DNA from: Geosiphon pyriformis uo1
Taxonomy: Eukaryota > Fungi > Glomeromycota
Length of the DNA: 64,000 nt
Reading direction: 5' to 3'
Assembly: GCA_016748015.1 (NCBI GenBank)
Contig: JAAOMT010000328.1
Coordinates: 323,779 to 387,778 of the forward strand
Shown here: positions 798 to 58,900 of the stretch, one piece after another
How positions within the stretch are numbered: position 1 is the stretch's first letter
Layout: every line of letters begins with the position of its first letter
Program-made: the position numbers and the translations under genes
The notes under the pieces: generated by a model
The model's input: the letters and a program-made list of their open reading frames with translations, nothing else
Database searches by the model: none
Told to the model about the DNA's origin: nothing

Positions 798-3130
798 TGT
801 TAAGAGTTGGAGTAACAAGCTAACCAATAGCAAAGGAAAAGGCTATTGAGATCGATGGAAATAATCAAAGGAGAAATTCAATTAAAGAAGCGAGTTGAAT
901 TTGTAAGGATCCAATGTGCATGATCAGTCTCAAAATTACAATCACTTAATCTTTTCTGGGAAATCTGAAAATAGAAGAATAGTTTGTAATTAATACTACT
1001 GCTATTATTCTATGTCTTACTTGGCAATTCTTAGAATTAATAACAGATATCATTGTGCTTTTCAATCATTTTTTTATTCAATAAATTACAAGAGCAAGCA
1101 ATTACTTTTTAGACTAATTCTAACAATACAAATTAAAAAAGAAAAAAGATAAAATATGTAAATGCCAACAAGTAATTTTTTATTTACAGATGTTCAAATA
1201 CTTGAAAATAAGGAATTGAAAAAGAAAAATAAGTAAAAAAAAATTATTGAATGTATAGATATTATTTTATTACTTTGATCTTTGACATGTTTTTCTTTAG
1301 CTAAAAAACTTATTGTTTATATAACTATTTAAAATGATTAATAATTAGGTTAATAATCAGATCAATAATCAGATTAATAATTAAATTATTAATTAAGTCA
1401 ATGATTAAATTAACAATTATGTTAATAATCAGATTATTGATTATTATTTAAAAAATTAAATAATTAATTATATAATATTATTGGCTAATATATGTAATAA
1501 TTAATAAAAACTATAAGTTTTAATTATAATATTATTTTTTTCAAAGAAATTAAGCTTTAATAAAATTAAATTATTTATAGAATATTTTAATTAAAAAGTT
1601 TTATTTAACTTAAAACTAACTAATTATAAAAGTTTTTTATTAAAAAAGTATATAATATTTGGAATAAAATAAGTTTTGTATTTAAAAAACCAAATTTTTG
1701 TATAAAAGTTTTGGTTTTTTTAACAATAATTAAAATTTTTGGAATATTTAATTGTATATAATATTCAAAATTTTTACTTGTATTTTTAAAGTTGTTTTTT
1801 AAGAGCTTTATATTTTCTATAATTTTATTAAAACAATTATAAAGCTTTAATTGTTTTTTATAAAACAAAATTTTTATTTATAAGCAAAATTTTTTTAATT
1901 GTTTTTTTAAATATGTTAAAAAACAATAATATAATTAATATTATATATTTAAGCATATATTTATTTATTTTATTACCAGTTTTTTTTTTAATAATAATTT
2001 TCTTTGGTTTAATAATAGTATATATTTTATATTAATTTTATAAAATATAAAAACTATTGTTCAAAATTTTATTAATTATAAAGAATTTATTTTTATAGAT
2101 ATTATTTTATTCAAATAATATTTTATAATTAAATTACCAATACTTAAAAAAAGTGTTTTATATGTTTTTTTTTGAGTTTTTTTAAAACTAATTTATTTAT
2201 TTTTTGAATTGTATATTATATACAAATTAATTATTAAAGATTATTCTATATTAATTTTATAAAATATAAAAATTATTGTTTAAAATTTTGTTAATTATAA
2301 AAATTTTTTTTTATTGGCTAAAAAACTTATCTTTATATATATTATTTTTATTTAAATAGTATTTTAAAATTAAGTTACTAATACTTAAAAAAAGTATTTT
2401 ATATGTTTTTTTTTTGAATTTTTTTAAAACTGTTTTATTTTTTTAAAAACCATTACTTATGTCTTTATTAATAAATTAAAAATTATATTAAGTTTTTTTT
2501 GCAAAATATTTTTGTATTTTTGTATTCTGTTTTTTTAAAAAAATATTGTTTTAATATTAATTTTTATTAATAAAGTTGCTATTTTTTCGTAAAACAAATA
2601 AAAAAATTTATAACTTATTATATTATAATTTATAATTCTATAAACAAACAAAGTTAAAAGCAATATTTTGTTTTATAAGTTTGTTTTTTTACTGGTTTTA
2701 ACCAAAATTTTATATAATATTCTATTAAAATATTCTATTAAGCTATTTTTTTTAAAAATAAAAGATAAAAATTTATAATATACTTTTGATTTTTTACAAA
2801 AATTATTAACTAGTATATTAAAAAAAGCTCTTTTTTATTAAATAAAACATTTAATATTTACATAAATAAAATTAGCAATAGAAACTGCTATTTAATTTAA
2901 AATAATTTTTACTTTTACTTATTTATAAGATAATTAATAACTATTATAATATATTTGTTATTATTAAAAGTTATTATTAAAAATTTAATAATATTAATAC
3001 CAATTTTATTAAATAGTTAACTAATAAAAATTGAATAAATATATTTTTTTTATTAAGTTTTTTTTTTGACAAATGTTATATGTTTTAATGTACTAAACAA
3101 TATTTTTTAAATTAAACCAGTAATTTTATT
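798..3130 (-). mobile_element. Degenerate 3' part of a Ty3/gypsy family A2 element: 3' LTR 798-1531, PPT, ORF3 and integrase relics
   Basis: TGTTAAGAGTTGGAGTAACAAGC at 798 matches the LTR ends at 3221 and 55958. 1532-1870 aligns with PPT/ORF3 at 56648-57000, and 2580-2740 aligns with integrase at 57830-57990. The right boundary is approximate. Confidence 0.8.
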
Positions 3131-7529: not shown

Positions 7530-7538
7530 TATAACATA

Positions 7539-11041: not shown

Positions 11042-14000
11042 TGTTATAGATGATTATTTGGGGTCTTAAAGCAAATAACAAATCCATAACTTGGTGCTTG
11101 GTTAGTATTCTGGTGTTGATATCTGAAGGTTTTGTTGATCTGAAGGTTTTGTTGTGAAGTTCTTTGTATAATAGACAGAGATTTAATAGTTGTTTTCAGT
11201 AGCCTTTCAGAATTGCAATTTCATCAAATTTTTTTCTCAGCGTGGTAACTGGTAATCCTTCTGGTAAACTATCCTCAAATCTATGAGTGTTCTACCCTTG
11301 TTTTACGGGTCTTTTACCAGTTCTTATGATGTCTGTATCTTAGTACTTAATCCTTAATCAATTAGTTAACCAAAAAAAAATACAAAAGAAATAAAAGAAA
11401 ATAAAAAAAGATAAAGAAAATAAACAACAGCAATTGCAAATTAGTATTCAGTCAATAGCTGTGATTAAGAGCTATTGTTCCAGTGTGGTTAAGTGTCAAT
11501 TACTATCAACATGAAGTGTTAATAGTGGAGAGTGAATTGAGATGGTGAATAATTATTTATTGATAGTTATAAATAAAATGTTTGTTTAGATCAGATCTAA
11601 ATTAGATGGTCTCTAACTAAAAAAATTTTGTCTTTTCTACTTCTAGCACTATTGCTATATATACATAATTAAGATTCCTCAATTTCTCAATTCTTTACAC
11701 CAGAAATCCTGGAATTTTGGAATCTTGTGATACCTTGTACAAGAATCCTGAAATTTCTGAAATCCTGTGATTTCTTTTGAAAGGAATCCTGGAATTCCAC
11801 ATTTACTATGGCTACCCCTGATTGGCTAATTTATATGCTAATATACTTCCTATATTTTATAAGTAACATTAATCTCTCTTTTTTAATACTGAGCTCCATT
11901 GAGATCTCCTAAATTTTCTAACTCTAATTCTCTGTCTTTGAGTATTTTTTGAACTTCTTTTTCGAGAATTACTTGGGTTATTTTGTTCTGTAATTCCTCA
12001 AATTGGGTGTTGGTTATTTTTCCCATTTGGTTAACTGTAATGGAGTTCAATTCCAGATTAAGTAAGATTTCCAGTCTGTCTTGGAATTCTGTATGTAGCC
12101 AATAGATGGCTCTTGCTTGTGTAGTCAAATTGTTTTTTCCCACAAATTGTTCCAGTTGTTGCAGTATTGTTGTGTCAAATAATCGTTTTGTTTTGTCTGT
12201 GTATAAGTTCTAAATATTCAAGTGTTGTCCCAAGTGGAAATAACAAAAGTTCCTTGGAAATTTGTGTATTCACCATTTCCAAGTTTTTTTGGTCAACTCT
12301 TGATATGTGGTGACACTTGTTAGTTCTTCTAATGCTAATTTTATTTTCAGAACCATTTTATTGATAGTGTTTTCTGTTTTCTTTTGACTTTTGTATTTGG
12401 GTATTTTTCTGGTATCTTAGTATCAAATGGTTTGTTAATTGATAGTAATTTCCATATTCTGTTGTTGAATCAGTTGGAAGAGTTGTTGTGTTAGTAAGTG
12501 GATGTTGTCAGTAATTTCCATTTTTCTGAAGTCTTTTGTCACATCTATCATGTCTTATATACTTTATTATTATTCAATTTTATGTGTTTGGTCCAATGAT
12601 TATGATTGGTTCCAGATCTTGTGAAATCTCATCTGGTTGAACTAATATTCTCTGCACTCCTAATTGTGAAATATTACTGGTAGATGACGACACTATATGG
12701 TAATATGATTTTAATCGATCACTATGTGCTGCTTTGGTTAAGATTTTGTTGTCCTATCTTAATTTATAAGCTCCATTTCCAAGAAATTCTTCTATGTAAA
12801 ATGGTTTGTCCCATTTCAGATCAAATTTTCTACTCCATTGTTTTTTCACTTTGGTATAATGTAGAAGTACTTTGTCTTCAATCTTGAATTCAACTGGTTT
12901 CTCTGATAGTTGGTTATTGTGTCTTTTTTTTTGTTTTTCTTGTGACTTTTGGATGTTGTCAGCTGCTTTTTGTTGTTTGTTTTCTAGCATTTTCATCAAG
13001 TCATATGTTTTTCTTAGCAATGTTTTCTGAAAATTATCTTCAATTATTGGTTCTGTTGAATAGGTGTTGATTTTTATCTCAATTAGTAATGTTGCTGTTC
13101 TACTATATACTAATTCAAATGGTGTTGTTTGTGTAGTGTCCTGCTTCATTGTCTAATAAGCAAATAATACTGATGGTATATACAAGTTCCATTTGGCTTG
13201 GTTTTTTTGACTGATCTTGGTAATTGTTTTACATAATGTTCTGTTAAACCTTTCAACTAACCCATTTGTTTATGGATGGTATGATAATAATAATGGTCTT
13301 TTTATCTCAAATCTTTGACTTAATTCTGTCAATGTTCTATTCACAAAGTGAGTTCTCTGATCTGATAGTAGTTCTTTTGAACATCCATGTTAACAGATCA
13401 AATCTTGATGAACAAATTCAGCAACAGATTTTGCATCTGCTTTTTGAATGGCTTTTGCTTCTGGCTATTTAGTGAGATAGTTCATAGCTACTGCAATATA
13501 TCTGTTGTTTCTGCTGGTGATTGTTAATGGTCTAACTAAGTCAATTCCAATGTGATTAAATAGTTATCCTACTTTGATTGGTCTTAATGGTTCACTGGGT
13601 CTTGTTCCTTCTTTTCTCTGACAAGCATCACAATTTTAAACATATTGGATAATGTCTGGATACATTGTTGGCCAATAATATTTTTTTCTGGTTCTTTCCA
13701 TGGTTGCTTCTTTATGGAAATGTCCTGTTGTTGAATCTGAGTACATGTTGAATAATATTGTCTCTTTCTCTAGTTCTGTAATTACTTTGGTTTTTTTTCA
13801 AGTGGGTGGTTGTATTTGTTTTGGTGTTACTGCTGGTGTTTGCAACCTTTCTTTGCCTTTGTTTGCATAGGTGATGGGGAATTGTTGTTGTGTGTATCTT
13901 TCAATGGTTTGATTAATTTCCCTGATAATTGGTGCAAAACTGTAGTTTTTTGGTAAGCTGGTATATTAAAATAATTCTGTATAAAAGTTTTCTCTTGTGA

Positions 14001-17899: not shown

Positions 17900-20800
17900 T
17901 AAAAAAATTTGTATTATATTCTGTAAATAAAAGTTTTGGTACTTTTTTTTTTCTTGCAATTTTTTTAAACTAGTATACACTTTTTTTGCAATAAGTTTTT
18001 GGACAAAAAAAAATTAGTGAATTTTAATAAAAATTTTAAAACTTAAATTGTTAATAGAGATTGTTTTAAAATAAAAATTAAGAACAGCTTTTTTTACAAT
18101 AATCTCTTTTTTAATATTAACTTTTAAAATTATATAGTATATATTTATAATAAAAATAATAATAATAATTAGTAAATATAATAATTAACAAATGATTAAA
18201 ATATAAATAAAAAGATAATAAAAGCAATTAAAAAAATATAATATTTAATAAAAACTCTAAATTCAAAAAATTGGTTATAAAAAACAACAAAATAAATATT
18301 ATTAATAAGATTATATGTATAAAAAGTTTTTGTTTTGAGTTTATTATAATAAGACTTAAAAAAATTTATTAAAATTCTTAAAAAAAAAAGAATAAATATT
18401 GTTAAGTTTAAAGTATCTATTTATTGAAATTGTTTAAATAATTTTTTAAAATATAATTTGTATTTATTTAAATTAAATAGTTAGTTATAACATTTCAAAT
18501 AGTATTTATACAGCTAATTTAAATTGTTTTATATATTGTTTATATTATTTTATTAAGAATTAAACTATAATAAATGTTTTAATCTATGTTTAAACAATAT
18601 ATACCATATAAAAAATAACATTATATTTTTGCTTTTCTTTATAAAGGCCAAAAAAATAGCTATAATATATTTTGTTTTAATATTATTTTGATCAAAAAGC
18701 ATATATTATAGAGTCTAATAAAAAGTAAATATTTAAATAACCTTTAATTTTGCTGTAACTGTTTTATTTTTTTTTTTATTAACAAAAAAATGTTTATTAA
18801 TATTTTAATATCTATGATTATTATAAATATATATAATAAATAAATACTAATTATGTTTACATTAAATTTACAGATTGTTTTAAAATTGTAAAACAAAAAT
18901 TATAGCAAAATTTTCAAATAATAAATTGTCTTACCTAATAGTTTTTTTAACTAAAAACTTATTGATATTAAAAATATTAGTTTTTAGATTAACTTTATCA
19001 ATAAGATAAAAATTTATTAAATTTATAAGTTTGTGTTTAATATTAAAAACTTCTTAAATTTAAAAATATTTACCACCCAAATTTTCATATGATTATTTAA
19101 TTTTTTTTTAAACAATATTAATAATTATTTATGGTTTATAATTTTTAAATGCTTTTTAATAATAATATTTTAACAAATTTTAACTGTTTTTATATATTAT
19201 ATTTATCAAAAAAGTAATTATAATTAAAAGTATCTTTTATTTTTTTAATTCAAATTTTTATTGTTATAATAAACCAAATTAATTTTATTTTAGTTTTGTA
19301 ATTAATAGAAAGCTGCTTTTAAGTTATGTAAAAATTTTTAAAAAGAATATTATTTTTATATTCACTTAATTTTTAAAGTTTTAAAAAGTTAATAAACATA
19401 TGTTTTTTATTTATTATTATTTATTTACTTATTTTTATTAAATTTGATCCAAAAATTGTTAATAAATATTTAATTATTATTAAATTTTTTAATAAAAAAT
19501 TTATATAATTTGGTAATATTAAAATAATATTTACAAAAATTTAACATAATAATAAAAATATCTTAAATAAAAATAACAAAAAAAAAGACATAATATAATA
19601 ATAAGTTTAATTTTAATAACAAAAAAACAGAGATAATAACAATAAAAAATACATAATAATAAAAGTTTTAACAATATTTTTTTATTTTAACAAGTGCAGC
19701 CCAATCACTATCTAGTATACAGAATCGTTTTAACAATATAAAAACAAAAAAAACATATATAATAAAAAAAGTTTTTTAGTAAGTTTTATTAACAAAAAAA
19801 AATAAGAGATTTAAAAAACTTATATTTATAGTAATTTTAATTTTAAATACTTTCAAAAAAACTTTTGTTAATATATAACTATATTGTTTATTATTTTGTA
19901 ATTGACCAATTAAATTATATTTATACTTAATCACAATTTTATTTTTAGCTAATTTGCTTTGCTTTAAGAATTTTTTATAATTAGTAGTTTTAAAATAACA
20001 TATATATAAAAAATAATAAAAAACTTTGATATAAAAAAAAATTTTATTTATATACTATTATTTTTAAATACAATAATAAATTTATTAATAAAATCATTAA
20101 AAAATTAAAAATAATATTGAACAATATATTAATAATAAAAAAAGTAAACATAATAAAATTGATATTAAATATATTTAAAAATTTAAAGCAAAATTTCCAA
20201 TTAATTATTGCTATTATTAACTTAAAAAACACTTAAATATATAAATATTATACTTAAAAAACTTAATTAAAATATTTAACAAAATAATAATTAATAATAT
20301 TAAATAATTAATTAATTTATAGTTTCAAAAATTACAATAATAGGTTAACAATATAATATTAAATTACTATAACAATATAAAATTCAATAAAAAATTTAAC
20401 TTCAATTTTTATAAAGCTTAATTTTAAAAAAAATAATAATATTATGATTTAAGAATTTAATAAAAATCATAAAACAATATAATAGCAATAAATACTAATA
20501 GTGTAATAATAATAAATACTATATTAAAATATTAAAAAATAGAGTATTATAATATGTTTTTTTGTAAAATTACAAATATATATATATATAATAGTTTTAA
20601 TATTAAGAAAAAAGCATTTTTTATATTAATTATTTTTTAGTTTTTACTATTAAAATAAATTTTTAAATAATTAAAAAAAATAAAAAATAAAAAATAAAAA
20701 TAAAAATTAAATTATTATAATAAACTTATTAAAACACTTACTTGTATTTATTTATTAAATAAAACTATTATTTTTCAACTGAATTTTTTAAAAAAATAAT

Positions 20801-27899: not shown

Positions 27900-29497
27900 T
27901 ATTGCATAATTTGATTATTACAATTGTGTATTGTATAAATTAGATTATTAATTAGATAATAATATTCAATAATATGATTAACTAATAAGTAATAATTGAA
28001 ATAATAATAATATATATCAATTAATAATAAAAATTATAAGAGTAATTTTATGTTAACTAATAACTAAAATTTCATTAATAGCATAATTTTTTTCTTAAAA
28101 CTGAGCTCTATCAAAGTCCAAGTATTATTTGTAATTTCGAGATAATAATCCAAAATTATTAAAGTAATTTGATCTAAAAATTGTTGAAATTTTAATTCTG
28201 TAAACTTGCCAATGTATTGAATTTTTATTGGTTAAAATATTAGATTCTATAGAACATTTTCACAAGTATTAAATAAATCATAAAGTCTAAAAGCTGTTTT
28301 AAGTTTGTATTAAGTATTTGTTAATTCAGTTATTGTTTTGAATTTATTGTGTATTTGTTTTTAAATGATTTCTGAAGTAAAATTAGTTGCTTTGAGTTTT
28401 AATTTTCGTTGGTATAATGTTTTTCCAATTTGAAAATATCAATAACTAAGAGTATATTTACTGTTTTTATTAAACCACATTTGAAGTTTTTATTGTATTG
28501 TGATATTCAAAAAAATAAATAGAGATGACCAATAGATTTTCTTTTAAAACTTACTTCAAAAGTTTTGGTAAGTAAATTCTAAAATAACTTTTTGTGTTTC
28601 TTATATAAGGATAATAGTTTTGAGAATTATTTACTATTAGTGTTATGGTTTCTTTTTAAGTATAATTAATTTAATTATTATAGATAAATCAAAGAGTGTT
28701 TTCAAAGTTAATATTAATTTTTGGAATATTTGTTGAATGTTTCAGGAGATAATTATGATAAAGTAAATAAATTAAGAATGAAATTTGAAAAATAAAGAAA
28801 TATTTTTGGATATAGGATTTTATATATTTTGGATTTTGGGTTTTCTTAGTAATTATTTACTATTTTTGCTTTATGTTTGTATATTATTAAAAATATTATA
28901 ATAATAATAAATTAAATATTTAGATTTGGTTATTGTTTTATTATAATTATTGGTTCTAAATTTCGGAAAATATTTTTGGGATTAATTAAAGAAGAATATA
29001 TACCAATTTGTAGAATTAATAATTCAAGATTGTTTCTAAAATAATAGTGTTTTAATCAATCTTTATGTACAACTTTTGATATAATTTGTTATTAAGTTTT
29101 AATTTGTATAATCTATTGCCTAAAACTTTATAAATATAGAATGATTCATCTTATTTATATTCAAATTTTCTACTCTATTGTTTTTTAGTCTTAATTCTAT
29201 ATAAGAGAACTTTATTACTAACTTTAAATTTATTGGTGGCCAGTAGCAATTTGTTGTAATGTTATTTTTTTTGTTGAGTTTAGAAGTATTTAATATGGAT
29301 AGCTGCAATTTGTTATTTTTTTTTAATGTGTTTAGAAAAGTGTAAGCTCTTTGTTAAAGTGTTTTTTGAAAGTTTTTTTCTGTAATGAGTTGTGCTGAAT
29401 ATGTTTTTATAGTAAAATTAATTAGTAATGTTGTTGTTTTTTATAAATAAAGTTAAATAATATGTGTTTTATAATATTTTGTTTTAGTGTTTTATAT
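27900..29497 (-). pseudogene. Possible eroded gag-like region of another LTR element
   Basis: Strand-biased composition resembling gag N-terminal regions of the other elements. No clean motif. Confidence 0.3.
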
Positions 29498-34416: not shown

Positions 34417-34482
34417 TAATAGTACAATCTTTCAATCAAACCAACTTAATTATTAGTAATACTCTTATAAACAAACATAATA

Positions 34483-35795: not shown

Positions 35796-35799
35796 TAAA

Positions 35800-36438
35800 T
35801 GCACCATTCCCAAAACAGAGGTATTTTCAATTGACATAAATAATTATTTTCTGGATCAAAACATCCAAAATGTCTTCTATACTCTCCATAAGTATTGGAT
35901 CTGACTATTGAAAAACAGACTACCATAACTGATAACAATAGAACACATACTATTATTAGACCAAAAAAAACAACTATTAAAAGAAAAAAAATTGGTTGCA
36001 AAATAGATAAATATCTGCTGGAAAGTATAACAGTAGCAATACTTTTATCTTTCAGCACAATTGGAAAAACAATTTAAGAAATCTTACCTATAAACAAAAA
36101 CTTGTTATATGGAAGGCAATTAAAACTCTATGATTATCTTGGTGAAATTATAGAGAATATAAACACATAAAAAAAACAACTTCAGAGATATAGGCAGAAA
36201 TTTTGGGCATTATATAGTTAAATGTCTGAAAAGTTTTAACTATTGCTAAAAGAGCCAAAACTTTAATACAAAGATTTAGTTTCTTAAATACAAAACTTAT
36301 TTTGTCTCAAGTATTATATACCCTATCCACAAAAGACTTTAACAAACTAGTTAGCTTTGAGTTAGACAAAACCCTTTAAATAGATTACACTATGAATAAC
36401 TTGATTTTGCTGGAGCTTAATTTCTTTGAAAAAAATAA
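35800..36438 (+). pseudogene. ORF3 of family A (unknown function, env position)
   Basis: Frame conserved in four copies (also 37118-37753, 56650-57370 and 1540-2000). Runs into the PPT. Confidence 0.75.
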
Positions 36439-37117
36439 TGTTATAGTTGAAACTCATACTTTTTATTGGTTATTACATGTATTAGCCACTAATGTCATAT
36501 AATTTGCTATCCTATTTTTAGATAGTAATCATTGACCTAATCAATGACTTAACTGTTGATCTAATTATTAACCTAATTATTAACCACTTTTAATAGCTAT
36601 ATAAGCAATGAATCTCTTAGCTGTAGAAATACATGTTAAAAATCAAGAAAATCAAATAAATAAAATAACAACTTTCATCTCAATCCTTTTCTTATTACTA
36701 ATTTCTCTTTTTTTATCTTTAAGTATCTGAACATTTTGAGATAAAAGATTACTTGTTGGTTATTCCCTACTTTTTCTTAAAATATGTAATTGTAGCATTT
36801 GAAGATTATTGAATAAAACATGACTAAAGAGTACATCTAATACTTGATATTGAATTCTAAAAGTGCCAATATGAGGCATAAAATTATACCAGTATGTGAT
36901 TATTTGTTGACAGTATAGACTATTTCTTTATCTTCAGATTCTCTGATTATCTTTTGAAAAGTATAGCAACAGAGATATTTTATAAGACTGATTTTGCATA
37001 TTTAATCCATACTTATTCAATTCATTCTTTAAAGTTAAATTCTCTTTGATTTCTTTTATTATCCTACAATCTTGTTCTTCCTTGCTATCTATTAGCTTGT
37101 TACTCCAATTCATAATA

Positions 37118-38443
37118 GTATTTTTAATTAACATGAACAATTATTTTCTGGATTAAAACATTCAAAATGCTTTCTATACTCTACATAAGTATTGAATCAA
37201 AAACTATTCAAATACTACTCTGATCATTGGAAAACAGACCATCATAACTAATAACAATGGAACACATACTGTTATTAAACCAAAGAAAACTACTAGAAGA
37301 GAAAAAATTGGTAGCAAAATGGATAAATATCTGCTAAAAAGTATAACAACAGCAATATTTTTACCTTTTAGCACAATTGGAAAAACAATCTAAAAAATCT
37401 TGTCCATAGACAAAAACTTGTTATATGAAAGACAATTATAACTCTATGGTTACCTTAATGAAATCATAAAAGATATGAAACTTATAAAAAACAACTTCAA
37501 AGATACAGATAGAAATTTTAAGCATTATATAATTAAATGTTTCAAGAGTTTTAATTATTGCTAAAAGAGCCAAAACTCTTATACAAAGATTTAATTTCTT
37601 GAATATAAAACTTATTTTGTCTCAAGTATTATTTACTTTATTTATAAAAAACTTTAATAAACTAGTTAGTTTTGAGCTAGACAAAATCTTTTAAATAGAT
37701 TATTCTATAAATAACTTGATTTTACTAAAGCTCAATCTTTTTAAAGAAAAAGATGTTATAGTTAAAACTCATACTTTTTATTAGTTATTACATATATTAG
37801 CCACTGATATTATATAATTAGCCACTCTATTTTTAGATAGTAATTATTAACTTAATTAATAACCTGACTGTTAACCTAATTATTGATTTAATCATTGATC
37901 TGGTTATTAACCACTTACAAATAATAAGTTTCTTAGCTGTAGAATTACATGATCAAAGTAATAAAATAAAACCCACTATCAATTACTTCTTCTCATATCA
38001 CTTATTTTTTTTTCTTTACTTTTAAGTATCTGAATATCTTGGAATAAAAAATTACTTGTTGGCATTTACATATCTTATCTTTTCTTTTTCTTAATTTGTA
38101 TTGTTAAAATTAGCCTAAAAAATAATTGCTTGTTCTTGTGATTTATTGAATAAAAAAATAATTGAAAAGCACAACAATACCTGTTATTGATTTTAAGAAT
38201 TACTGAGTTAAGAAATAGAATAATAGCAGTGATATTATCTTGTTGACAATCATAGATTATTCCTCTATCTTTAAATTTCCAGAAAAAATTTGCAACTGTG
38301 ATTCTTATGAAACTAATTACATACATTAAATTTTTACTTATTCAATTTACTTCCATATTGTAATTTTTTCTTTGATTATTTTTATCACTCTATTATCTTG
38401 TTCTTTTTTGCTATCCATTAGCTTGTTACTCCAATCTGTAACA
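37118..38443 (+). mobile_element. 3' remnant of a gypsy A2 element (ORF3 37118-37753 plus LTR 37754-38443)
   Basis: 37118 onward aligns with 35821 onward. The LTR carries the A2-specific segment shared with 1081-1170. Right flank ATGT. Confidence 0.88.
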
Positions 38444-42014: not shown

Positions 42015-43302
42015 CAAAAAAAAACTTTTTTCTCTCTTTGACTGCTACCACACAATTTACTATGCCTCAAATTTGGAAAATAAGTTTTTTGCAAAGAAAT
42101 CTTTAATTATAATAAATTTTTATTATCACAACAGACTTAAAAGTGTCTGATAACAATGTCAACTGTGAAGTAACACCAGTCACACAAAGAAGTACAAGTG
42201 AAGAGACTATTGATAGTGAATACCAAATGGAGAGAAACATAACTTCCACTGCTAAAAAAGAAGATATTAATACTAATCCACGAAAATCATTAACTGTGAA
42301 AACTGCAAGACCTACTACACTTCTATTTAGATTTGAAACTACCAATAGACTATTTGGAAGTGTGAACACAAATAGTGGAAATGATATGCTATTACAAGTG
42401 ATTATTTGAGGTCTCAAAATAAATAACAAACCTGTAATTTGATGCTTAATAGCAATATTAATGGTGGTGATAATCTGAAGGTTTTGGTTGTCTGAAGGTT
42501 TTGGGTTGTCTGAAGGTTTTGGTTGTCTGAAAATTTTGGTTGAGTCTTTTGTATAATAGACAGAGATTCAAGTAATGGATTTTATTCGTAACTTTCCAAA
42601 ACTGCAGTTTCATCAATTTCTTTCTTAGCATAATGGCTGGTAGTCATCCTGGTAAGCTATTCTCAATTAAGTATCTACCCTTATTTTTGGGTCTTTTACC
42701 AATGCTATATCTTGATGTCAATACCTCTGCATGTTAATCCTCTTAATCAAGTTAGTAATAAAAAAAATCAAAAAGAAAATAAAAGAAAATAAAAAAGAGA
42801 AATAAAGAAAATTAAAGAAATAAGCCAAAGCAGTTTGCAAGTTAGTATCTTATTAATAACCATGATCAATAGCTATTGTTCTAGTATGGTTTAAGTATTA
42901 ATTTCTATCAACATAAAGTGTTGATAATAGAAGTAGATTGTAGATAACAAATAATTATTTTTATTGATATTTGTGAATTTGGAAGGTTACTTAGATTAAA
43001 TCTAAACTGAGAGGTCTGTTTTTTTTACTTCTAATACTACCACTATATATACATAATTGAGATTTCTCAATTCCTTAATTCTTCACATCAGGAATTCTGG
43101 AATTTCTGGAATCCTGCAATTCCTTTTGAGAAGAATCCTGGAATTCTGGAATCCTGCGATTCTTTGTATGAAAATTCTGAAATTCCTAGAATCCTACAAT
43201 TTCTCTGAGAGAAATTTTACATCTACTGTGCCTATTTCTGATTGGCTAATTTATATGCTAATATACTTCTTATATTCTATGAGTAACATTATTTTCTTCT
43301 TT

Positions 43303-44043
43303 TTAATATTAAGCTCCATCGAAATCTCCCAAATTTCTTAATTCTAATTCTTTATCTTTGAGTATTTCTTGAACTTCTTTTTTGAGAATTACTTGTGTTA
43401 TTCTGTTCTGTAATTCTTCAAATTGGGCATTGGTTATTTTTCTCATTTGGTTTACTATAATGGAGTCCATTTCTGAATTAAGTAAGATTTCTGGTCTGTC
43501 TTGAAATCCAGTATGTAGCTAATAAATGGCTCTTGCTTATGTAGTCAAATTGTTTTTTCTCACAAATTGTTTCAGTTGTTGCAGTATAGTTGTGTCAAAT
43601 AATTGTTTTGTTTTATCCGTGTATAAGTTCTGAATGTTCAAATATTGTTTCAAGTGAAAATAACAAAAGTTTCTTGGAAATTTGTGTATTCACCATTTTC
43701 AAGTCTCTTTAGTTAACTCTTGATATGTGGTAACACTTATTGGTTCTTCTATTGCCATTTTTATTTTCAAAATTATTTTGTCAATAGTGTTTTCTGTTTT
43801 CCTTTGAATTTTGTATTTGGGTATTTTTTTAGTATCTTGGTATTAAATAGTTTATTGGTTAATAGTAATTTCCATATTCTGTTGTTGAATTAGTTGGAAT
43901 AGTTGTTGTGCTAATGAGTAGATGTCATCAGTGATCTCCATTTTTCTGAAGTCTTCTATTGCATTTACCATGTCTTTATATACTCTTTTATTGTTCAATT
44001 TTACATGTTTGATCCAATAATTATAATTGGTTCCAGATCTCAT
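43303..44043 (-). pseudogene. ORF3 of family C (unknown function)
   Basis: Same frame as 11883-12620. Its stop abuts the PPT. Confidence 0.75.
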
Positions 44044-44079
44044 GAAATTTCATCTGGTTGGACTAGTATTTGCTGTACT

Positions 44080-45385
44080 CTCAATTGTGGAATATTACTT
44101 GTGAATGGTACTATTATATAATAATATGGTTTCAGTCAATCACCATGTGCTGCTTTGATTAAAATTTTGTTGTTTAATTTTAATTTATAAGCTCTATTTC
44201 CAAGAATTTTTTCTATGTAAAATGGTCTATACCATTTGGGATCAAATTTTTTACTCTATTGTTTTTCCACTTTAGTATGATATAAAAGTACTTTGTCTCC
44301 AATCTTGAATTCAACTGGTTTATTTGGTAGTTGGTTATCATGTCTTTTTTTTTGTTTTTTTTGTGACTTTTGGATGTTATCAGCTGCTCTTTACCATTTG
44401 TTTTCTAGTGTTTCCATTAAGTCATATGTTTTTCTTAACAATGTTTTCTGAAAATTGTCTTCAGTTATTGGTTCTGTTGAATAAATGTTGACTTCTATCT
44501 CAATTGGTAATGTTGCTGTTCTACTATATACTAATTCAAATAGTGTTGTTTGTGTAGTGTCTTGCTTCATTGTCCGATAAGCAAATAATACTGATGATAT
44601 AAACAAATCTTATTTGTTTTGGTTTTCTTGGCTAATTTTGGCTATTGCTTCACATAGTGTTCTGTTAAACTTTTCAACTAACCCATTTGTTTGTGGATGG
44701 TATGGTGATGATAATAATCTTTTTATCCCAAATTTTTGACTTAATTCTGTCAATGTTCTATTTACAAAGTGAGTTCCTTGATCTGATAGTAGTTTTTTTG
44801 GACATCTGTGTTGACAGATTAAATCTTGATGAACAAATTTGGTAATAGATTCTGCATCTGCTCTTTGAATGGCTTTTGCTTCTGACCATTTAGTAAGATA
44901 ATTCATGACTATTGCAATATATCTGTTGCCTCTGCTAGTTATTGTTAATGATCCGACTAGATTAATTCTAATTTGATCAAATAGTTGTCCTACTTTGATC
45001 AGTCTCAATGGTTCACTGGGTTTTGTTCCTCTTTTTCTTTGACAAACATCACAATTTTGAACATATTAGATGATATCTGGATACATTGATGGCCAATAAT
45101 ATCTTTTTCTAATTCTTTCTATAGTTGCTTCTTTATGAAAATATTCTGCTGTTGGATTTGAGTGCATGTTGAACAAGATTGTCTCTTTTTCTGGTTCTGT
45201 AATTACTCTGGTTGGTTGATTTGGATTTCTTTTATTCTTTCGATATAATATATTTTGGTGTGTAATAAAATATTTGGATTGTTGTTTGATGTTGTTTTGT
45301 TCTTTTTGAGATAATTTCTTCTTAAACAATTGAGTATTTATATAATATTGGAGTTGTTAATATTTTTGTATATTTATTTTTTTGT
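44080..45385 (-). pseudogene. Integrase of family C
   Basis: ORFs 45066-45329, 44610-45008 and 44391-44606: RYYWPSM, INLVGSL, NYLTKWSEAKAI, LSDQGTHF, SPYHPQTNGLVEKFNRTL. Confidence 0.92.
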
Positions 45386-45399
45386 TATATTTTTTTTTT

Positions 45400-46700
45400 T
45401 TAGATTTGTCTCATTTGTAACAAACTATTGGCATTTTCATTTTTTTTTCCTTTTTATAATGTACTGTATATTTGTATGGTGCAAGTTCTATTTTCCATTG
45501 AGTATAGCGATTGTCTCCAAATTCTTGTTTCTGGATTGAAGTCAATCCTTTATGGTCTGTGTAAATGTCAAATTTTTGGCTTAAGTATTTTTTTTATTTT
45601 ATTACTGCTCAGTAAATAGCTAAATGTTCTAGTGCTGGTGTTCTATAGTTCTTTTCCACTGAGCTCAAACTTTGACTAGCATATACTACTAGATGTTTTT
45701 TTTCATCCAGTCCTCTCTGTGATAGTACTGTTCCCAATGCTTGACTTAATACATCAGTAGTAATGATGAATGGTTTGCTGTAATTTGGATAAATCAATAC
45801 TAGAGCTTGTATAAGCTTTTTTCTTAGTGTGTCAAAAGCTTCTTGCTGAATTTTTGTCCATTTATATTTTACATTCTTGGTTTGGAGTTGATGTAATGAC
45901 TGAGCCAATTTAGAAAAATCCTTGATAAAGCTGTGATAGTACCCTGTGAATCCCAAGAATGCTTTTAGTTCTGTAAGATTATTTGGTACTGGAAAGTTCT
46001 TAACAACTTTAATCTTGTCTGGATCTGTTTTGATGCCATTTTTGTTTATAACATGTCCCAAAAACTTGAGTTTAGTTTTCCCAAAGAAGCACTTATTTGT
46101 ATTCAATTTCAGTCTTGCTCATCTTAGTCTCTTAAATACTTGTTAGAAATAGTGAAGATAATCATCAAATGTTTTTGAGAACATGTTGGTGTCATCCAAG
46201 TATATAACTACTGACTTCCACAATAGTTCAGTGTACACAATTTCTATTAACCATTGAAATGTGGCTGATGTATTCATTAATCTGAATGGCATAACTTCAA
46301 ACTCAAAATTTTTCTCTCTTGTGGTAAATGCTGTTTTCTCTTTGTCGGCTGGATCCATGGCTACTTGTCAGTAACTACTATCTAAATTCAGTGTTGAGAA
46401 CCATTTATTTCTTCCAAAAGCATCAAATAATTCCTGTATTTGTGGAGTTGGATAACTATCTTTATGAGTAACACTATTGAGTTTTTTATAATCTACACAA
46501 AAGCAGATCTTCCCATTTTTTTTTCAGACTAGTATCACTAGTAATAATCATGGATTCATTGATGACTGAATTAGTCTATTGTCTAACATCTGGTTGATTT
46601 CTTGATGAATAATCTTATGGCTGGTTAATAGTACTTAATATGCTCTTTGTTTGATTGGCATTGCATTTCCAGTCTTGATCTAATGCTGGATAATGTTGGT
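45400..46700 (-). pseudogene. pol: Reverse transcriptase and RNase H of family C
   Basis: DKEKTAFTT...VMPFRLMN...VIYLDD, KCFFG...KFLGHVI, FIITTDV...LGTVLSQ...VVYASQSL...EKNY. Confidence 0.93.
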
Positions 46701-47149
46701 ACAGCCAAATTCATTTTCACTAGCAAAGATATCACTAAAATTGTTGAGTAATATTTTTAATTGCATCTGTTAGAATAGGTCTAGATTTTCTATGTTTATC
46801 TGTTCCAATTGTTCCAATTGGAGCAAATAACATTTGCTTTGTCTGTAAATGGTTTGTAATGTGATATCCACATATTCCAATTGTGTTGTAGATGGGAATT
46901 TTAATGTTTTTGGGGCTTTTGGCTTGTATATAAAGATTAGTGAGTCCAATTTTTCCTGATTTACAGATGGTGGCTTCTGCTTCAAACAATTGAGCTTGAT
47001 CCTTTACTTCTCTTTTTATGGCTAATATATACTGGTTATATGGTGAAATGAAAATTGATTAATAGGTGGAGATAATTTCTCCCTTGTTAATAACTTCTTT
47101 TTCTGCCATATTGACTGGTATATCTATTCTACTTATGGATCTGAATCTC

Positions 47150-47540
47150 TGTATCCCTTTTGCTATTATTCCTAATTCTTCTCTGTTTCCCACTGGTGCT
47201 AACTAAGCTATTTTAACCAGAGACAGGAATATTGCCTGTGATATTTTTTTATTTGGCTCTATTGTATAGGCTTTTTCTGAGTTATTTTGTAGTATTGTAA
47301 TGATATTTTCTATGTATCCTGTATCAATTATTCTTTCTCTAATATTTATTCCTTTTTTTTTTAAGCTACTCCTAGATGCTAGTTGAATCATTGTTGTTGC
47401 TAGAATTTCCAGTGCTATTTTGAGATCAATACAGATGCATGAATGTGGTTTCAATTTGATGACATTTTTTCCTGGATATCTCAGATCAAATTCTGCATCA
47501 GTATTATGCGTGCATTCTGACATGATACCTTCATTGTTAT
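47150..47540 (-). pseudogene. dut: dUTPase domain between protease and RT
   Basis: Trimeric dUTPase motifs in order: DAEFDL, LASRSSL, IIDTGY, KISQAIF. Eroded motif V (RGIQRFRS) after the stop at 47203. Confidence 0.88.
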
Positions 47541-48899
47541 CACTAAACCATTTCAGTTTTTGCTTCTTGGTGAGATTCAGAAGTGCAATATATTGTTTGT
47601 AGTTTAGATCAGGATTCAAATCTGAGTTTAAATTATTGTCATTATTATTGCCATATTGAACAAAGCTGGAATTATTGTTTTTATTATTATCATTGTCAGA
47701 GTTTGAATCAGGATTGAAATTTGATTCTGATTCCAATGCACAGTTGCTGATTGGTTTTTTCTCTTCTGGGATCGTATAGATCATGTGTGGTGGTGGATTG
47801 TAAATGAAGTTACACTCATTACAATATTAAAAGTCATATGGGATCAAACAGTGGTCATATAGTCAAGTGTTTATTTGGGCTAAATGCTGCTTTTGTTTCT
47901 CTCTTGTTGGTGCCAAATTTTGGTAGTGTTCATGGAATTTTTTTGGGCCTGCTTCTAGGTCCAGGAAAGCATCTGGGTTGGGAATCAGAACAATATTGAT
48001 TGGTTCCAAAGGGTTGTTCTTGATTTTCAATATTTTGCTGAACATGGTATCTTCTACTTTGGCATTCACTATCCACCAGATCTTGTCCTTGTCATGTGAG
48101 TAACCATCCAAACAAGAGATTGCACAGTGCCAAATGGCAATTATTGGCATACCACAACTTACCCAATCACTGATAAGGATTATGTACTGGCATAAAGTGT
48201 CACACAATTCTTCTCAACCAGGAATGTTATTCCATATTCCTTCATCAAGCAATTATTTGCTGCAAGCAAAACATGGTTCATTGTCCTACTTGTCTTGTTT
48301 TTTTGGGTAGCCATAGCATTCGCAATAGCAAGACTTGCAATAGTAATGGGTTCACGTTTAGTAATCTTTATCTGGTACAATTCAAGCTCTCATAGAAGAC
48401 AATTTCTTTTTGTAGTTTTTACACCTAAGAGAAATATAAAGTGGTTTTGGTCTGGTATTTGTTGAGTATGTATTTCTCCAACCACTTGTTACTGTAGTGT
48501 CATTGGTCTCTTCAGATATATCTTTTTTCTTTTCTTTCTTTTTTCTTTTGTTTTTTTCTTTCCAGTCTAGAATTAGTGGTATTTCACTTTGGTTGTTGTT
48601 AGTTCACATGTTTTGAACAGTCCTCCAGATAAGTTCTTCTGTGTACTTTTCTTTTTTTTGTACATTTTATGAAAGTATTGGCAGTAGCTCATTGTAGTCC
48701 TTATCAGCCCATAAGACTTGATAGGCTTCTCAAAAAGGTTTGCTTACTTCTTTTTTGAGTTCTATTAATAGTGCTAGCACATTGGTGGTCTTTAAATGAT
48801 CATACATTGCTGCTGCTCATGTGTATTGGCTGTTTTGGCTGATTTGCAACTTTTAAGTAGTTCAGTCAAGCATTGTATTGGTTTTGGACAGCCAATCAT

Positions 48900-51560
48900 T
48901 TTCAACTAAAGCTTGATATTAAGTGGTCTCCATAACTAATACTTTGATTGGCATGATGATGCCATTAATCTTTATAGAGAAGTCATTAATCTTGCTGATC
49001 AGAGTTTTGGTTGCTCTATTAACAGTAATTATGCGTGTGCTGACAGCGTGATCAACTTGGCAACCTAATTGGTCTATGAGTTGTTGTGTAATGATGCTGC
49101 CAGCTGATCTACTGTCTAGAATCAGTTTGATGGTATGGCCATCAACTTTCATGTCAGTGTACATGGCAGTGATCAGTTTGGTGTCAAGAGCAGCTCCACT
49201 AAATAATAGAATAGATGTGGTTTCCTCGAGTTTGAAAGGAAAAATAGCAGCTAGGGATTTGTCATTGGAGATAGTTGCTGGTGGAATATTGCTAGTAAGT
49301 GGCTGCTTCTGGTTGTGTTCCAGATTATTGGATGGAGCATCTTCTGGGGTAACCAAGAGACTTAAATAGTTCTGAGAATTCAGATTTTGGGCATGGCTGG
49401 TGCCTAAATTCTGTTGATGAGATTCTGATTGTTGGGCTGATGAACTGGAGATTAGTTGATGAACTATTATCACCAATCTCCAGTTTTTTTGTGTCATTCT
49501 CAGCCTGTGTATTCCATTTTGAGGTAAGTTTTGTGGCAGTGTTTGAATTTGTTGGGATTGATAGATTACTAGTGGCTGTAATTGATATATTATTTGTGGC
49601 TGTGACTAATAAATTGGAGTTTAATATACTGATGGTTAATAGACTGGCTGCTGTGTTATTGACAGGTAAGTGGATTGATATTGATTTTGGTTTGAGTAAG
49701 GATTCAGGGTTTGAAACTGGCAGTTAGGATTTTTGTATTGATTTTCTGATTGTTGGTTATTGTTATTAGACTAGCAGTCAATTTTTAGATGGTCTTGTCT
49801 TTCACAGTTGTGACAAACACACATTTCTGGCTGCCACAACTGATTAGATGATAATGATCATGACTGATATTGGAAATGATTCGCATTTCCTTAGTTACTG
49901 CGTCATTGTGGAGGTTGATAAATTGCCTGATTATTGCTAGCTAAGTATCTTTTTAGTTTCTGATTAATTGAATTACTAAATTGTTTCAATTTAAAATCCA
50001 ATTCAGATGATTCATTTATTACTAGATTTATGACTTGGGCATAGTTGGCTTCTAACTCAGCTGACTCAAAGTCCCTGGCGCATGTGACTGTATCTTAAAG
50101 AGTGGCTGCATGTAATGGATGTACATGTTGAAGGATGCTACTGTGCAAACCATGGATGAACTAATTCAAGATTTGTGGCTCTGTAAAGTAGTTGGCATCA
50201 ATTGCTTGAATTTGGCATAGATTTTACTAGAAGCATTTCAAGTAAGTGGTAACTGCTTCAGTATCTTCCTGTTTGATGGTAGTGAAAGTGTTGGCCAAGT
50301 AATTAATGCTATTATTATTACTAAAATATCTCAAGAATTCAAGTTTGAATTCCTAGAAGATTTGTGGTCTGGCTGCTAAACTCTGATACCATGAATTAGT
50401 GGTATCTTGGAGAAAGTAAAAAATTGCTTGAAGGGCTCTATTGTTATCCCAGTTATTGATAGTAATGGCTTTGATAATATTATTGATCTATGCTTGAATG
50501 TTATCTTCTTTGCTGGTGAATTTCTCAAGTTTGGTGATTGGAGTGTAGGCCATTAGATTCATATTTTGTTGTTGAGGTGGTTGTTGCAGCTGTTGTGGTT
50601 ATTGAAGGGGTTGTTGAATTTGTTGATTTAGTTGTAGAGGCTTGGCTATTGGATTAATCAGTAGCTGGTCGATAATGATTATTGGAGATATGTTTGGTTG
50701 ATTAATTAATTTAAAGTTTAGATTATTCTGATTTTGTGGTGATTAAATATTTGGAGTTTTGACTTCCAGATTTTCTAAATTTGGATCTTGCTGAGTCTGA
50801 AAGTTTGGAGTTTTAATGTCTGAGTTTTGGTAAGTAAATTCCTGATCTTCGGTTTTTTTTTCTTCCTCTTCTTTTGATTCTGTTACCTCTCATGGGTCAG
50901 CTGTTCCAAAATCTGGTAGAGGTGGCAGTAATTGGTATCCTAATAGGATAGTTGATTGCAATTTAAATCCTTCAAAATAATTATCATAGGTCTCTAATAA
51001 TTCTGCTTTCTTTTGTTTACTTTGAAAGGGAAGTTGTCCAAATATTGATGTTGTATTTAATGTGGGCATGTCTGTTAATAAGATGTTGATGGCGCTTCTG
51101 GATATATAGTGATATGATGGATTTGTCGGCAATTCAACTCTGGTTTTTTTCCAAGTGAGTGGTTGGATCTCTTTTAGTGTTGCTGTTGGTATTTGTAGTC
51201 TTCTTTTTCTTTTGTCTATGTAGGTGATTGAGAATTGTTGTTGTGTGTATCTTTCAATAGTTTGATTAATTTCCCTGATGATTGGTGTGAAACTGTAATT
51301 TCTTGGTAAGCTGGTGTGTTGAAATAATTCTGTATAGAAGTTTTCTCTTACTGATTCAATGTCAACTGTTCCTCTTAAACAGTCTGTGATTTTTTCATTA
51401 ATGTAAAAGTTAAAAACAGATTCTGCTGAATAATAGTTGTTGTTTAATCTTAGTTGTTGGCTATACTATTGGAACAAAGATTTGGCAAATCTTAAATGGT
51501 TTGTTTCTATGTTTTCTGGTTCTGCCACTTTTAGATAATTGTTGTTAGTGCTGGTTTTCT
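48900..51560 (-). pseudogene. gag: gag (long N-terminal extension, capsid-like core, CCHC) and aspartic protease of family C
   Basis: Protease KLILDSRSAGSII. Knuckle VCHNCERQDHLKIDC at ~49775-49820. Capsid-like core at 50050-50550. Confidence 0.85.
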
Positions 51561-55957: not shown

Positions 55958-58900
55958 TGTTATAAATTGGAGTAACAAGCAAAAGAGAACAGAATTGTAA
56001 GATAATGAAAATAATCAAAAGAAATTCAACTTTAAAGAGCAAATTAAATAAGTATGGATTCAATGTGTGAGATCAGTCTCATAAAATATCTTAGTCACTA
56101 TACTTTTCAAAAATAACTGAAAAATCTGAAAGTAGAGGGATAGTCTGTACTGTTAACAAATAATCATGCTTGGTATAATTCTATGCCTCATATTAGTGCT
56201 CTTAGAATTCAATATCAGGTATCAGATGTACTCTTCAGTCACATTTTATTCAATAATCTTCAAATGCTGTAATTATACGTTTCAAGAAAAGGGTAGATAA
56301 AGGCCAACAAATATCTTTTATCCCAAAATGTTTGAATATTTGAAGGTAAGAAAAGGGAAATTAGCAATAAGAGAATGATTGAAATGAAAGTTGTTATTTT
56401 ATTTATTTTATTTTCTTGATTTCTATATGTTTTTCTATAGCTAAGAGATTCATTGCTTATATAGTTATCAAAAGTGGTCAATGATCAAGTCAATGATTAG
56501 ATCAATAATCAGGTCAATAATCAAGTCAATAATCAGGTCAATGGTCAGGTCATTGATCACTTTCTAAAAATAGAGTGGCTAATTTATGTGATATCAATGG
56601 CTAATACATGTAATAATTAATAAGAAGTATAAGTTTTAACTGTAATATTATCCTCTTCAAAGAGATTAAGCTCCAGTGAAATTAAGCTATTTATGATGTA
56701 ATCTAGTTGAAAAGTTTTATCTAACTCAAAGCTAACTAGTTTGTTAAAGTTTTTTGTGGATAAGGTATATAACACTTGTGATAAAATGAGTTTTATATCC
56801 AAGAGACCAAATCTTTGTATTAGAGTTTTGGCTCTTCTAGCAATAGTTAAAACTCTTGAGACATCTAATCATATAATGCCCAAAATTTCTGCCTATATCT
56901 CTGAAGTTGTTTTTTTCATGAGTTTCATATCCTTTATGATTTTACCAAGGTGACCATAGAGTTCTAATTGCCTTCCATATGACAAGTTTTTGTTTATGGA
57001 TAAGATTTTTTGGAGTGTTTTTCCAATTGTGCTGGAAAGTGGAAGTATAGCTGTTGTTATACTTTTTAACAGATATTTATGCATTTTGCTACTTCTAGTA
57101 GTAGTTTTCTTTGGTTTAATAACAGTATGTGTTCCATTGTTGTCAGTTATGGTGGTTTGTTTTCTAATAGTTAAAGTAGCATTTGGATAGTTTTTGATCC
57201 AATACTCATGGAGAGTATAGAAGGCATTTTGAATAGTCAAAGTAGCATTTGGATAGTTTTTGATCCAATATTTATGGAGAGTATAGAAGACATTTTAAAT
57301 GTTTTGATCCAGAAAATAATTGTTCATGTCGATTAAAGATATCTCTATTTTGGGAATGGTATATTTATTTATACTTGATTTTTGCTGATCATTTTGGTCA
57401 GTATTACCACAACAGACAACCAATAAGGTTGTTTATAATATTTTTTGAGTCGTGTACTATGAACAAGATAATCATTGAAGATTGTTCTAAATTGATCTTA
57501 AAGAATATAACAATCATTGTTCAAAACTTTGTTGATTATAAAGGATTCTTTTCACTGGCTAGAAAATTTATCACCATAGACATTGCCTTTGTCTGAATAG
57601 TATTCTAATACCAAATCACCAACACTTAAAAAAAGTGTTTTATAGGTTTTTTTTTCTTAAGCTTTTCTTGAAACTGTTTTATCTTTTTAAAAGCAATTAT
57701 TCATGCTTCTACCAAGAAGTCAAGAATAGTACCAAGTCTTTTTTGCAAAATATCTTTGTAATCTCCTATTGTAATCTTTTTAAAGGGTATTGTCTCAATG
57801 TAAGTTTCTATTGGTAGTGTTGTCATGTGTCTATAGAGCAAATAAAAAGGTTCATAACTTGTTATGTCATGATTCACAGTTTTATAAACAAACAAAGCTG
57901 AAAGCAGTACTTTGTTCTATAAGTTTGTTTCTTCATTGGTTTTGGCTAGGGTTTTACATAGTGTTTTATTGAAACATTCCACTAAGCCATTTGTTTAGAG
58001 GTAATAAGGGGAGGAAAGTTTATGACGTATTCCTATTTTTTTACAAAGTTCTTCAACCAGTGTACTGAGAAAAGCTCTTCTTCTATTAGATAAAAGTTCT
58101 TTGGGACAGCCATAATGGCAAATGATATCTTCATAAATGAAATTGGCTATTGAAACTGCTGTTTGGTCTGGGGTAGCTCTTGTTTCTACTCACTTTGTAA
58201 GATAGTTGGTAGCTGTAATAATATATCTGTTGCTATTAGAAGTTATTGTTAAAGATCCAACAATATCTATACCAATTCTGTCAAATAGTTGACCAACAAA
58301 GATTAGATGAATATTTTCTTTGTGATTGGGTTTGCCTCCTCTTTGGCAGATGTTACAAGTTTTGATGTATTCAGCAATGTCCTTTTCCAAGGTAAGCCAA
58401 TAATAGCAAGTTAAAGTTTTCTGAATTGTTTTTGTTTTTCCAAAGTGTCTAGCTAATGAGTTAGTGTGTATGTTGTATATTACAATTTCTCTTTCTTCAA
58501 ATCTGATAACTCTTAGGGGTGGTTAGGATTTTTTTTGTTTCTTTTATATAATTGGTTCTGGTGGATCAAATAGAAATTTGATTGTTTGTGCAAATGTTTT
58601 CTTTGCTGTCAAGTGTATTCTGATGGATATTGTCCTTTACTCAAAAATTCCATTAAGGCAGAGTAGTTGTTCAAGTCTATTATTGTGTTTGTTTGTGAAA
58701 GAGTTACTAATAATTAAGTTGGTTTGGTTTGAGAGGTTGTACTATCACTGGATGGTAAGTCTAAAGAAAACATCAGCATTTTGATGATTTGCTCCTTTGT
58801 GGTGTTGAATATCATAGTCAAATTCATCCAAGTAGAGTATTCAACAAGTTATTTGTTTGTGTTCCAGCTTTTTTTTATTGTGCAGCCAAACTAAGGCTTG

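Follow-up and report, generated by a model that had tools for sequence, protein, structure and literature searches.

ORF3 of Geosiphon pyriformis Ty3/gypsy elements: a new family of proteins from a known gene position downstream of integrase

In a 64,000-nucleotide stretch of Geosiphon pyriformis DNA (the window), elements of two Ty3/gypsy families, A and C, carry a sense open reading frame (ORF3) downstream of integrase. The locus raises the question of whether ORF3 is a real gene, whether the proteins of the two families are homologous and what such a protein might do for its element. The first-pass annotation had proposed a three-cistron layout with a homologous third protein that is not env and that is possibly nucleic-acid-binding or anti-silencing. 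We conclude that this family of proteins is new and that the position of its gene, after integrase and before the 3' LTR, is a known one.

The family C element at 42390-52513 of the reverse strand (C1) is a full-length, mutation-decayed LTR retrotransposon. It was assigned to Ty3/gypsy by LTRs with TG..CA-type ends, a target-site duplication, a primer-binding site and a polypurine tract (PPT), and its domain order (gag-PR-RT-RH-IN) is that of Ty3/gypsy (Table 1). The pol stop is located at 44001-44003 and the first ATG of ORF3, at 43971, begins 29 nt downstream, while the start common to the homologues (MEIT) is found at 43941. ORF3 of this element is about 212-222 codons long with six premature stops, and its stop codon (43303-43305) lies immediately before the PPT. 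As gag, protease and dUTPase of family C share one frame, the proposed three cistrons may be two, gag-pol and ORF3. With Pfam, the integrase C-terminus of C1 (scanned to 44070) and that of the pol in L001, a contig from a metagenome, matched SH3_Tf2-1 and no chromodomain. Compared with each other, the LTRs of C1 have 798 matches, 99 transitions and 4 transversions. Transitions form 96% of the differences, in the contexts CT (48), CA (34), CC (15) and CG (2), and CpG observed/expected is 0.1 in C1. Most of them thus lie in non-CpG contexts, CpG being already depleted, and the pattern is that of a strong C-to-T mutator reaching beyond CpG.

Table 1. Coordinates of the C1 element and of the ORF3 copies in the window
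Feature	Positions	Strand	Remarks
5' LTR of C1	51591..52513	(-)	
Target-site duplication of C1			4-bp GCAT on either side of element
Primer-binding site of C1	51575..51588	(-)	TGG..., 2 nt past LTR end
gag-protease-dUTPase region of C1	46900..51558	(-)	single frame, scattered stops; Pfam Retrotrans_gag E=1e-9, aspartyl protease E=5e-6, dUTPase E=3e-9; plus zinc knuckle
Unclassified Cys-rich region of C1	about 47900-48400	(-)	precedes dUTPase
dUTPase of C1	47176-47511	(-)	between protease and RT, E=3e-9
Reverse transcriptase and RNase H of C1	45450..46898	(-)	after one frameshift near 46.9 kb
Integrase of C1	44001..45398	(-)	H2C2, rve, C-terminal SH3_Tf2-1
TATA-like box TATATAAA	43975..43982	(-)	41 nt before homologous ORF3 start; candidate internal promoter
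ORF3 of C1	43303..43971	(-)	between integrase and PPT
Polypurine tract of C1	43289..43302	(-)	GGAGCT motif directly before
3' LTR of C1	42390..43288	(-)	
ORF3 copy C2, family C	11883..12551	(-)	
ORF3 copy A1, family A	56617..57327	(-)	internal duplication near N-terminus; extends into 3' LTR
ORF3 copy A2, family A	35836..36466 (approximate)	(+)	frameshifted; element spans about 29497-37104
ORF3 copy A3, family A	37133..37781	(+)	inside tandem duplicate of ORF3 plus LTR
ORF3 copy A4, family A	1504..2169	(-)	heavily decayed
ORF3 core, third family G	28088..28507	(-)	downstream of integrase C-terminus 29073-29371
ORF3 remnant, fourth family E	20098..20409	(+)	

The two family C and four family A copies reported earlier were all recovered in the window, and the ORF3s of families G and E are additions to them. 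All of these copies are broken. Copy A3 belongs to a tandemly duplicated 3' end and is not a separate full element; the duplication of ORF3 plus LTR covers 35821-38435 of the forward strand, and a 12-nt tandem repeat was also noticed within the family A LTRs. By inspection, family A is without the dUTPase and the Cys-rich region seen in family C. The frame of A2 changes from gag to protease near 31.7 kb, which could be programmed or a product of decay. ORF3 was said to end at the PPT: this is correct for family C, where the stop just precedes the tract, but in family A the frame runs through the PPT and about ten codons into the 3' LTR. Counted on the translations, the motifs are 34 residues apart in A and 37 in C, as had been stated, and the family C motifs quoted with these spacings are those of C2 (11.9-12.6 kb), C1 having variants. 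In C1, C2 and A1 the ORF3 frame contains 3-7 stops. The worst of the other sense frames contains 19-23, although C2 has a third frame with just 6.

As the first-pass annotation had stated, the ORF3s of A and C are not obviously alike in DNA; the only stretch in common is one of 18 nt that adjoins the PPT. A GGAGCT motif before the PPT is common to the elements of families A, C and G and to those of L001 and of L007, a contig from a bacterial bin. The GGAGCT(C/T)A sites are located at 43310-43320, 56660-56675 and 28100-28115 of the window, at 3090 of L001 and at 3037 of L007. Because the motif is read in different frames across families, it is likely to be a cis element for plus-strand priming or integration.

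Other features were noticed in the window. A higher-GC, intact-looking host gene with at least two exons and a hydrophobic N-terminal stretch is stranded among the transposons at 23158-24484 (forward strand); it gave no Pfam match and contains a HELMH (HExxH) motif which we take to be metalloprotease-like. Between two gypsy LTRs, at about 52500-55950 (forward strand), lies a LINE-like element with a zinc-knuckle ORF and putative endonuclease-like motifs. Furthermore, a 797-nt inverted repeat (62140-62936 and 63204-64000, 93% complementary, arms 267 nt apart) runs off the window end.

ORF3 is a real gene, and in family C it is kept under purifying selection. Copy number and dN/dS were based on the window copies and on database proteins, and dN/dS was computed from transversions because a transition-based value is swamped by post-insertion C-to-T decay. 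The first-pass annotation had named dN/dS as a test of ORF3, with values near 1 counting against it. Between the C1 and C2 ORF3s, transversions were found at 5 of 74 synonymous and 4 of 562 non-synonymous sites, which corresponds to a dN/dS of 0.11 (Fisher p=0.0016); the integrase value for this pair is 0.26. The family A ORF3 pairs gave a marginal 0.29 (p=0.02-0.10), with 0.38 for integrase, and the oldest family A copy gave 1.0. In the database searches 63 of 237 candidates matched family C and 112 of 845 matched family A, and every named match was a gene model of Geosiphon pyriformis. Twenty of the 112 family A matches are intact and exactly 218 aa long. Selection, these recurrent intact proteins and an intact relative in L001 bear out the proposal that a true ORF follows integrase.

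Among 1.84 billion representatives, a profile search found 92 matches, of which 20 were looked up: 17 are from Geosiphon, and one of the other three is spurious. The looked-up matches define further Geosiphon ORF3 families at about 20-40% identity; in all, at least six families of Geosiphon have an ORF3, as do elements of other organisms. P0255 was dropped as a low-complexity false match. Some Geosiphon ORF3 gene models are annotated as fused to the integrase SH3 domain. The first-pass annotation had suggested a resemblance to the 'ARKIYxLF...SISKLTNxQI' domain of Glomeromycota hypothetical proteins. Such a link may exist, and no Glomeromycota species other than Geosiphon gave a named match in these searches, the 20 looked-up matches included. 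The IMG/VR scans gave three weak integrase loci and no ORF3 relative.

In the L001 contig a near-intact RT-RH-IN region is followed, after a spacer of some 320 nt, by a 230-aa ORF3 (P0256) that is intact and extends through the PPT; L002 has the same RT-RH-IN-ORF3 order. The family G ORF3 shows 63% identity to P0264 and p=3e-8 against P0256. L007, a eukaryotic contig that contaminates a bacterial bin, carries in the ORF3 slot an ORF of 146 aa. This ORF has the same motif order without the N-terminal module, and its statistical link to ORF3 is weak (at best p 0.001-0.006). It appears that this one relative can dispense with the N-terminal helix and beta-hairpin of ORF3. Eukaryotic gypsy contigs (L006, L007, L008, L013 and L015) were observed to contaminate several bacterial genome bins. 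One of these, L008, carries at 5458-9454 (forward strand) an intact gypsy element of a eukaryotic host. Its pol is followed by two large ORFs in sense orientation, of 503 and 727 aa, which have Cys-rich, RING-like N-termini and are unrelated to ORF3.

Between families, the pols of A, C, L001, L006 and L007 are 37-49% identical as compared with 22-37% to outgroups, and ORF3 identity between families is 21-37%. The suggestion that ORF3 defines a lineage is compatible with the pol tree, which places these elements on one side of a branch, but with a support of only 63/73; the integrase-core tree did not resolve the groups.

We consider it probable that the A and C ORF3s belong to one family, with the homology passing through a single bridge. 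The homology claimed at first failed the direct profile comparison, in which hhalign gave no significant match, and BLASTP, repeated hhalign and cross-HMM comparisons of A with C were all without a match. Only P0256 was found to bridge the two families. It matches the family C profile with E=1.4e-7 (library-wide) and aligns colinearly with family A over about 190 residues, with the motifs quoted earlier in register. Against P0077 of family A, with the PPT-derived tail removed, p=1.2e-4 (0 of 3000 shuffles), and against eight other family A copies p ranges from 5e-5 to 0.06 depending on the copy. Moreover, 15 of the 20 intact family A proteins outscore all 899 real-ORF decoys against P0256. Before these tests we removed the C-terminal 'ELNL' that A and L001 have in common, as this likeness comes from the PPT-adjoining DNA motif, which family C reads in another frame. 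Against the C-type proteins P0245, P0008, P0206 and P0267 and the family G copy, A scored no better than decoys or shuffles. The AlphaFold2 models of P0256 (pLDDT 78) and of family A (pLDDT only 39) both show a helix-strand-strand unit followed by a run of helices at matching positions. The transitive match through P0256 and the same predicted element order therefore speak for homology, and a direct sequence or profile match is absent.

Family A could also have acquired its ORF3 independently, the protein merely resembling the C-type one. The uniformly negative direct profile comparisons, the reliance on one bridging sequence, the weakly supported element monophyly (63/73) and the dUTPase that family C has and family A lacks would all fit such an origin. 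We regard it as rather unlikely, since the colinear alignment of P0256 with A retains its p=1.2e-4 without the PPT-derived C-terminus, and position, length and predicted element order are all equal to those of C.

The core of ORF3 may resemble the helix-turn-helix (HTH) modules of DUF1016-N, DUF3102 and KorB, a likeness noted ahead of the fold searches. DUF3102 members were recovered from only 1 of 27 genomes. With the core profile, DUF1016_N segments were ranked 1, 3, 4 and 5 among 3008 control segments, and against shuffles the ranks were only 3-15 per 1000. The rank-2 ParB match was discounted as it aligned outside the HTH, and the best rank of the canonical ParB HTH domains was 14 of about 3030. 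The best pairwise p for DUF1016_N, about 4e-5 to 1e-3, is not significant across the 24,736 families of Pfam, and this family was picked by eye. A VIA structure search with the P0256 model gave Raf1 (Z 4.0, rmsd 5.2, 85 aligned), Spo0J (Z 3.9, rmsd 5.2, 94 aligned), KorB (Z 3.6, rmsd 5.1, 96 aligned) and ParB (Z 3.4), all Z-scores being below 5. The HTH matches (Z 3.4-4.0) cover residues about 77-207, and unrelated helical proteins tie with them or rank above. Four-helix-bundle matches of the family A model were disregarded in view of its pLDDT of 39. Tentatively, the C-terminal helical core (residues about 80-200) may be related to the DUF1016-N / ParB-KorB HTH module and may bind DNA. Profile ranks and models lend weak support to nucleic-acid binding by ORF3.

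TATA-like boxes were found at -41/-40 (C), -46 (A1), -126 (L001) and -124 (L007), that is, in 5 of 7 ORF3 upstream regions as compared with 26 of 171 background windows; after shuffling, such a box occurs in 28-58% of these regions. No such box was found upstream of the A2 and L002 ORF3s. Judged from sequence, the chances are about even that a subgenomic ORF3 mRNA would arise from a TATA box about 40-125 nt upstream and end in the 3' LTR.

Our main reading, to which we give a probability of about 0.42, is that ORF3 is a separately expressed nuclear, predicted nucleic-acid-binding regulator of its own element. The diverged Geosiphon Ty3/gypsy families are likely to have inherited a soluble ORF3 from one ancestral gene, and an internal promoter of its own likely expresses it as a subgenomic mRNA. 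The HTH-type core is predicted to bind the LTR or the transcript of the element, and we conjecture that the protein would keep the element transcribed in a repeat-methylating host. For an anti-silencing role, there is nothing beyond context to point to it.

Several other readings of ORF3 have to be weighed against this regulator. ORF3 occupies the env slot and every window copy is broken, as would be expected of an env-like membrane protein or of a non-functional passenger, yet both are hardly credible. In line with the first-pass annotation, which had denied that ORF3 is env, none of the 8 proteins examined showed a transmembrane (TM) segment or a hydrophobic N-terminus. Their Kyte-Doolittle means over 19 residues peaked at 0.27-1.44, a measure of hydropathy and not the output of a dedicated signal-peptide predictor, and the proteins contain 0-3 cysteines. 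Hydropathy thus rules out env, and the dN/dS of family C rules out the passenger, against which the intact ORF3 of another organism (L001) also speaks. The Geosiphon members are basic (pI 9.0-9.7) and two metagenomic ORF3s are acidic (pI 5.4 and 5.9). Pfam gave no significant match, GDSL, DEDDy and TRP28 (PF04195) included, and these identities were rejected; no PF17761 match at E<=0.1 was found among 28 ORF3 members. PDB sequence searches were also without a significant match, and Foldseek of the models against the PDB and viral libraries gave 0 matches at E<=0.001.

A soluble, helical and often basic protein could also be an RNA-handling accessory, a functional counterpart of Rev or CERV that would bind the genomic RNA of the element and serve its export or packaging. 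There is a precedent in CERV of Cer1, which is required for gRNA export according to the accessible text of PMC10309623, and for family A the Atlas listed the phage RegA translation repressor and a closterovirus coat protein (0.91), as leads only. However, of the 256 features only 130-134 are shared by these Atlas entries, RNA-binding families gave no match in sequence or in fold, and the CERV message is spliced whereas the hints for ORF3 favour an internal promoter. On balance this reading is unlikely. The Atlas gave no usable match for P0008, and its entries for P0077 were of low overlap. Less likely again is that ORF3 suppresses host silencing (RNAi or DNA methylation) by binding proteins and has no nucleic-acid-binding role. 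The very fast divergence of ORF3 (21-37% identity, as compared with 38-49% for pol) is compatible with an arms race, copies are heavily mutated by the host (99 transitions against 4 transversions), and TE methylation and small RNAs were shown in Rhizophagus (accessible part of PMC8647823). There is no direct evidence for such a suppressor, however, and fast divergence also fits regulators that co-evolve with their own LTR.

In its widest form, the regulator reading would make ORF3 an ancient retrotransposon family of bacterial-type (DUF1016-N/ParB-like) HTH regulators that, expressed from an internal promoter, keeps one gypsy lineage transcribed in methylating hosts, helped to drive the LTR expansion of Geosiphon and explains hundreds of Glomeromycota 'orphan' gene models; we hold this to be unlikely. 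LTR sequence forms 41% of the Geosiphon genome, according to the accessible text of PMC11952901, and ORF3 is kept across at least six families in that LTR-rich genome. Intact natural copies of ORF3 exist, and its function is therefore directly testable. In addition, well over 150 Geosiphon 'hypothetical protein' gene models are pieces of transposon ORF3s (63 + 112 matches, with more in further searches), which matters for gene counts and for claims about orphan genes.

Extra ORFs between pol and the 3' LTR are already known (accessible parts of PMC7264820 and PMC5408684), as is dUTPase in fungal gypsy pol (likewise PMC2864245). In the literature covered, with Geosiphon genome papers and supplements outside its scope, no description was found of the ORF3 protein family or of any Glomeromycota ORF3; the accessible portions of PMC3248453 and PMC13524379 hold nothing on such an ORF. 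The known env-like third ORFs have the slot and the orientation of the Geosiphon ORF3 and are kept in most copies of a family, but some of them have TM segments and spliced messages, whereas the Geosiphon ORF3 is soluble, fungal and without a sequence match to them. The family C dUTPase has its counterpart in PosPlaTy3-5 and other fungal gypsy elements, where the domain also lies between protease and RT. The survey in question, as far as its accessible text goes, deals with chromoviruses, whereas C1 has no chromodomain match, and one of its figure legends refers to a further ORF of unknown function (PMC2864245).

Among non-env systems, the LTR elements of bdelloid rotifers have a third ORF as a separate unit and, like family C, a dUTPase in pol (accessible text of PMC5408684). 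Their ORF3s are GDSL, DEDDy, coiled-coil or TM proteins of another kingdom, whereas the Geosiphon ORF3 has no esterase, exonuclease or TM signature. CERV of the C. elegans element Cer1 is, like the proposed ORF3, a soluble accessory regulator encoded by the element, and its spliced message sets it apart (accessible part of PMC10309623). The N-terminal domain of DUF1016 (PF17761) and the ParB-Spo0J-KorB HTH share with ORF3 a Y-x-x-I-G helix that is followed by two helices ending in Y/F-x-x-F; unlike these proteins, ORF3 has an extra N-terminal helix-hairpin, lacks a nuclease or ParBc partner domain and scores below every significance threshold. Gene23 of the maize Grande element and TRP28 of Retand are, like ORF3, accessory genes in the interval between pol and the 3' LTR, but they are antisense and plant-specific, whereas ORF3 is sense and has no PF04195 match. 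In the accessible text of PMC7264820 and PMC11963269, gene23 is nuclear and has its own promoter, and TRP28 is predicted to bind DNA. By analogy, these two plant genes would be the closest 'works like' model for ORF3.
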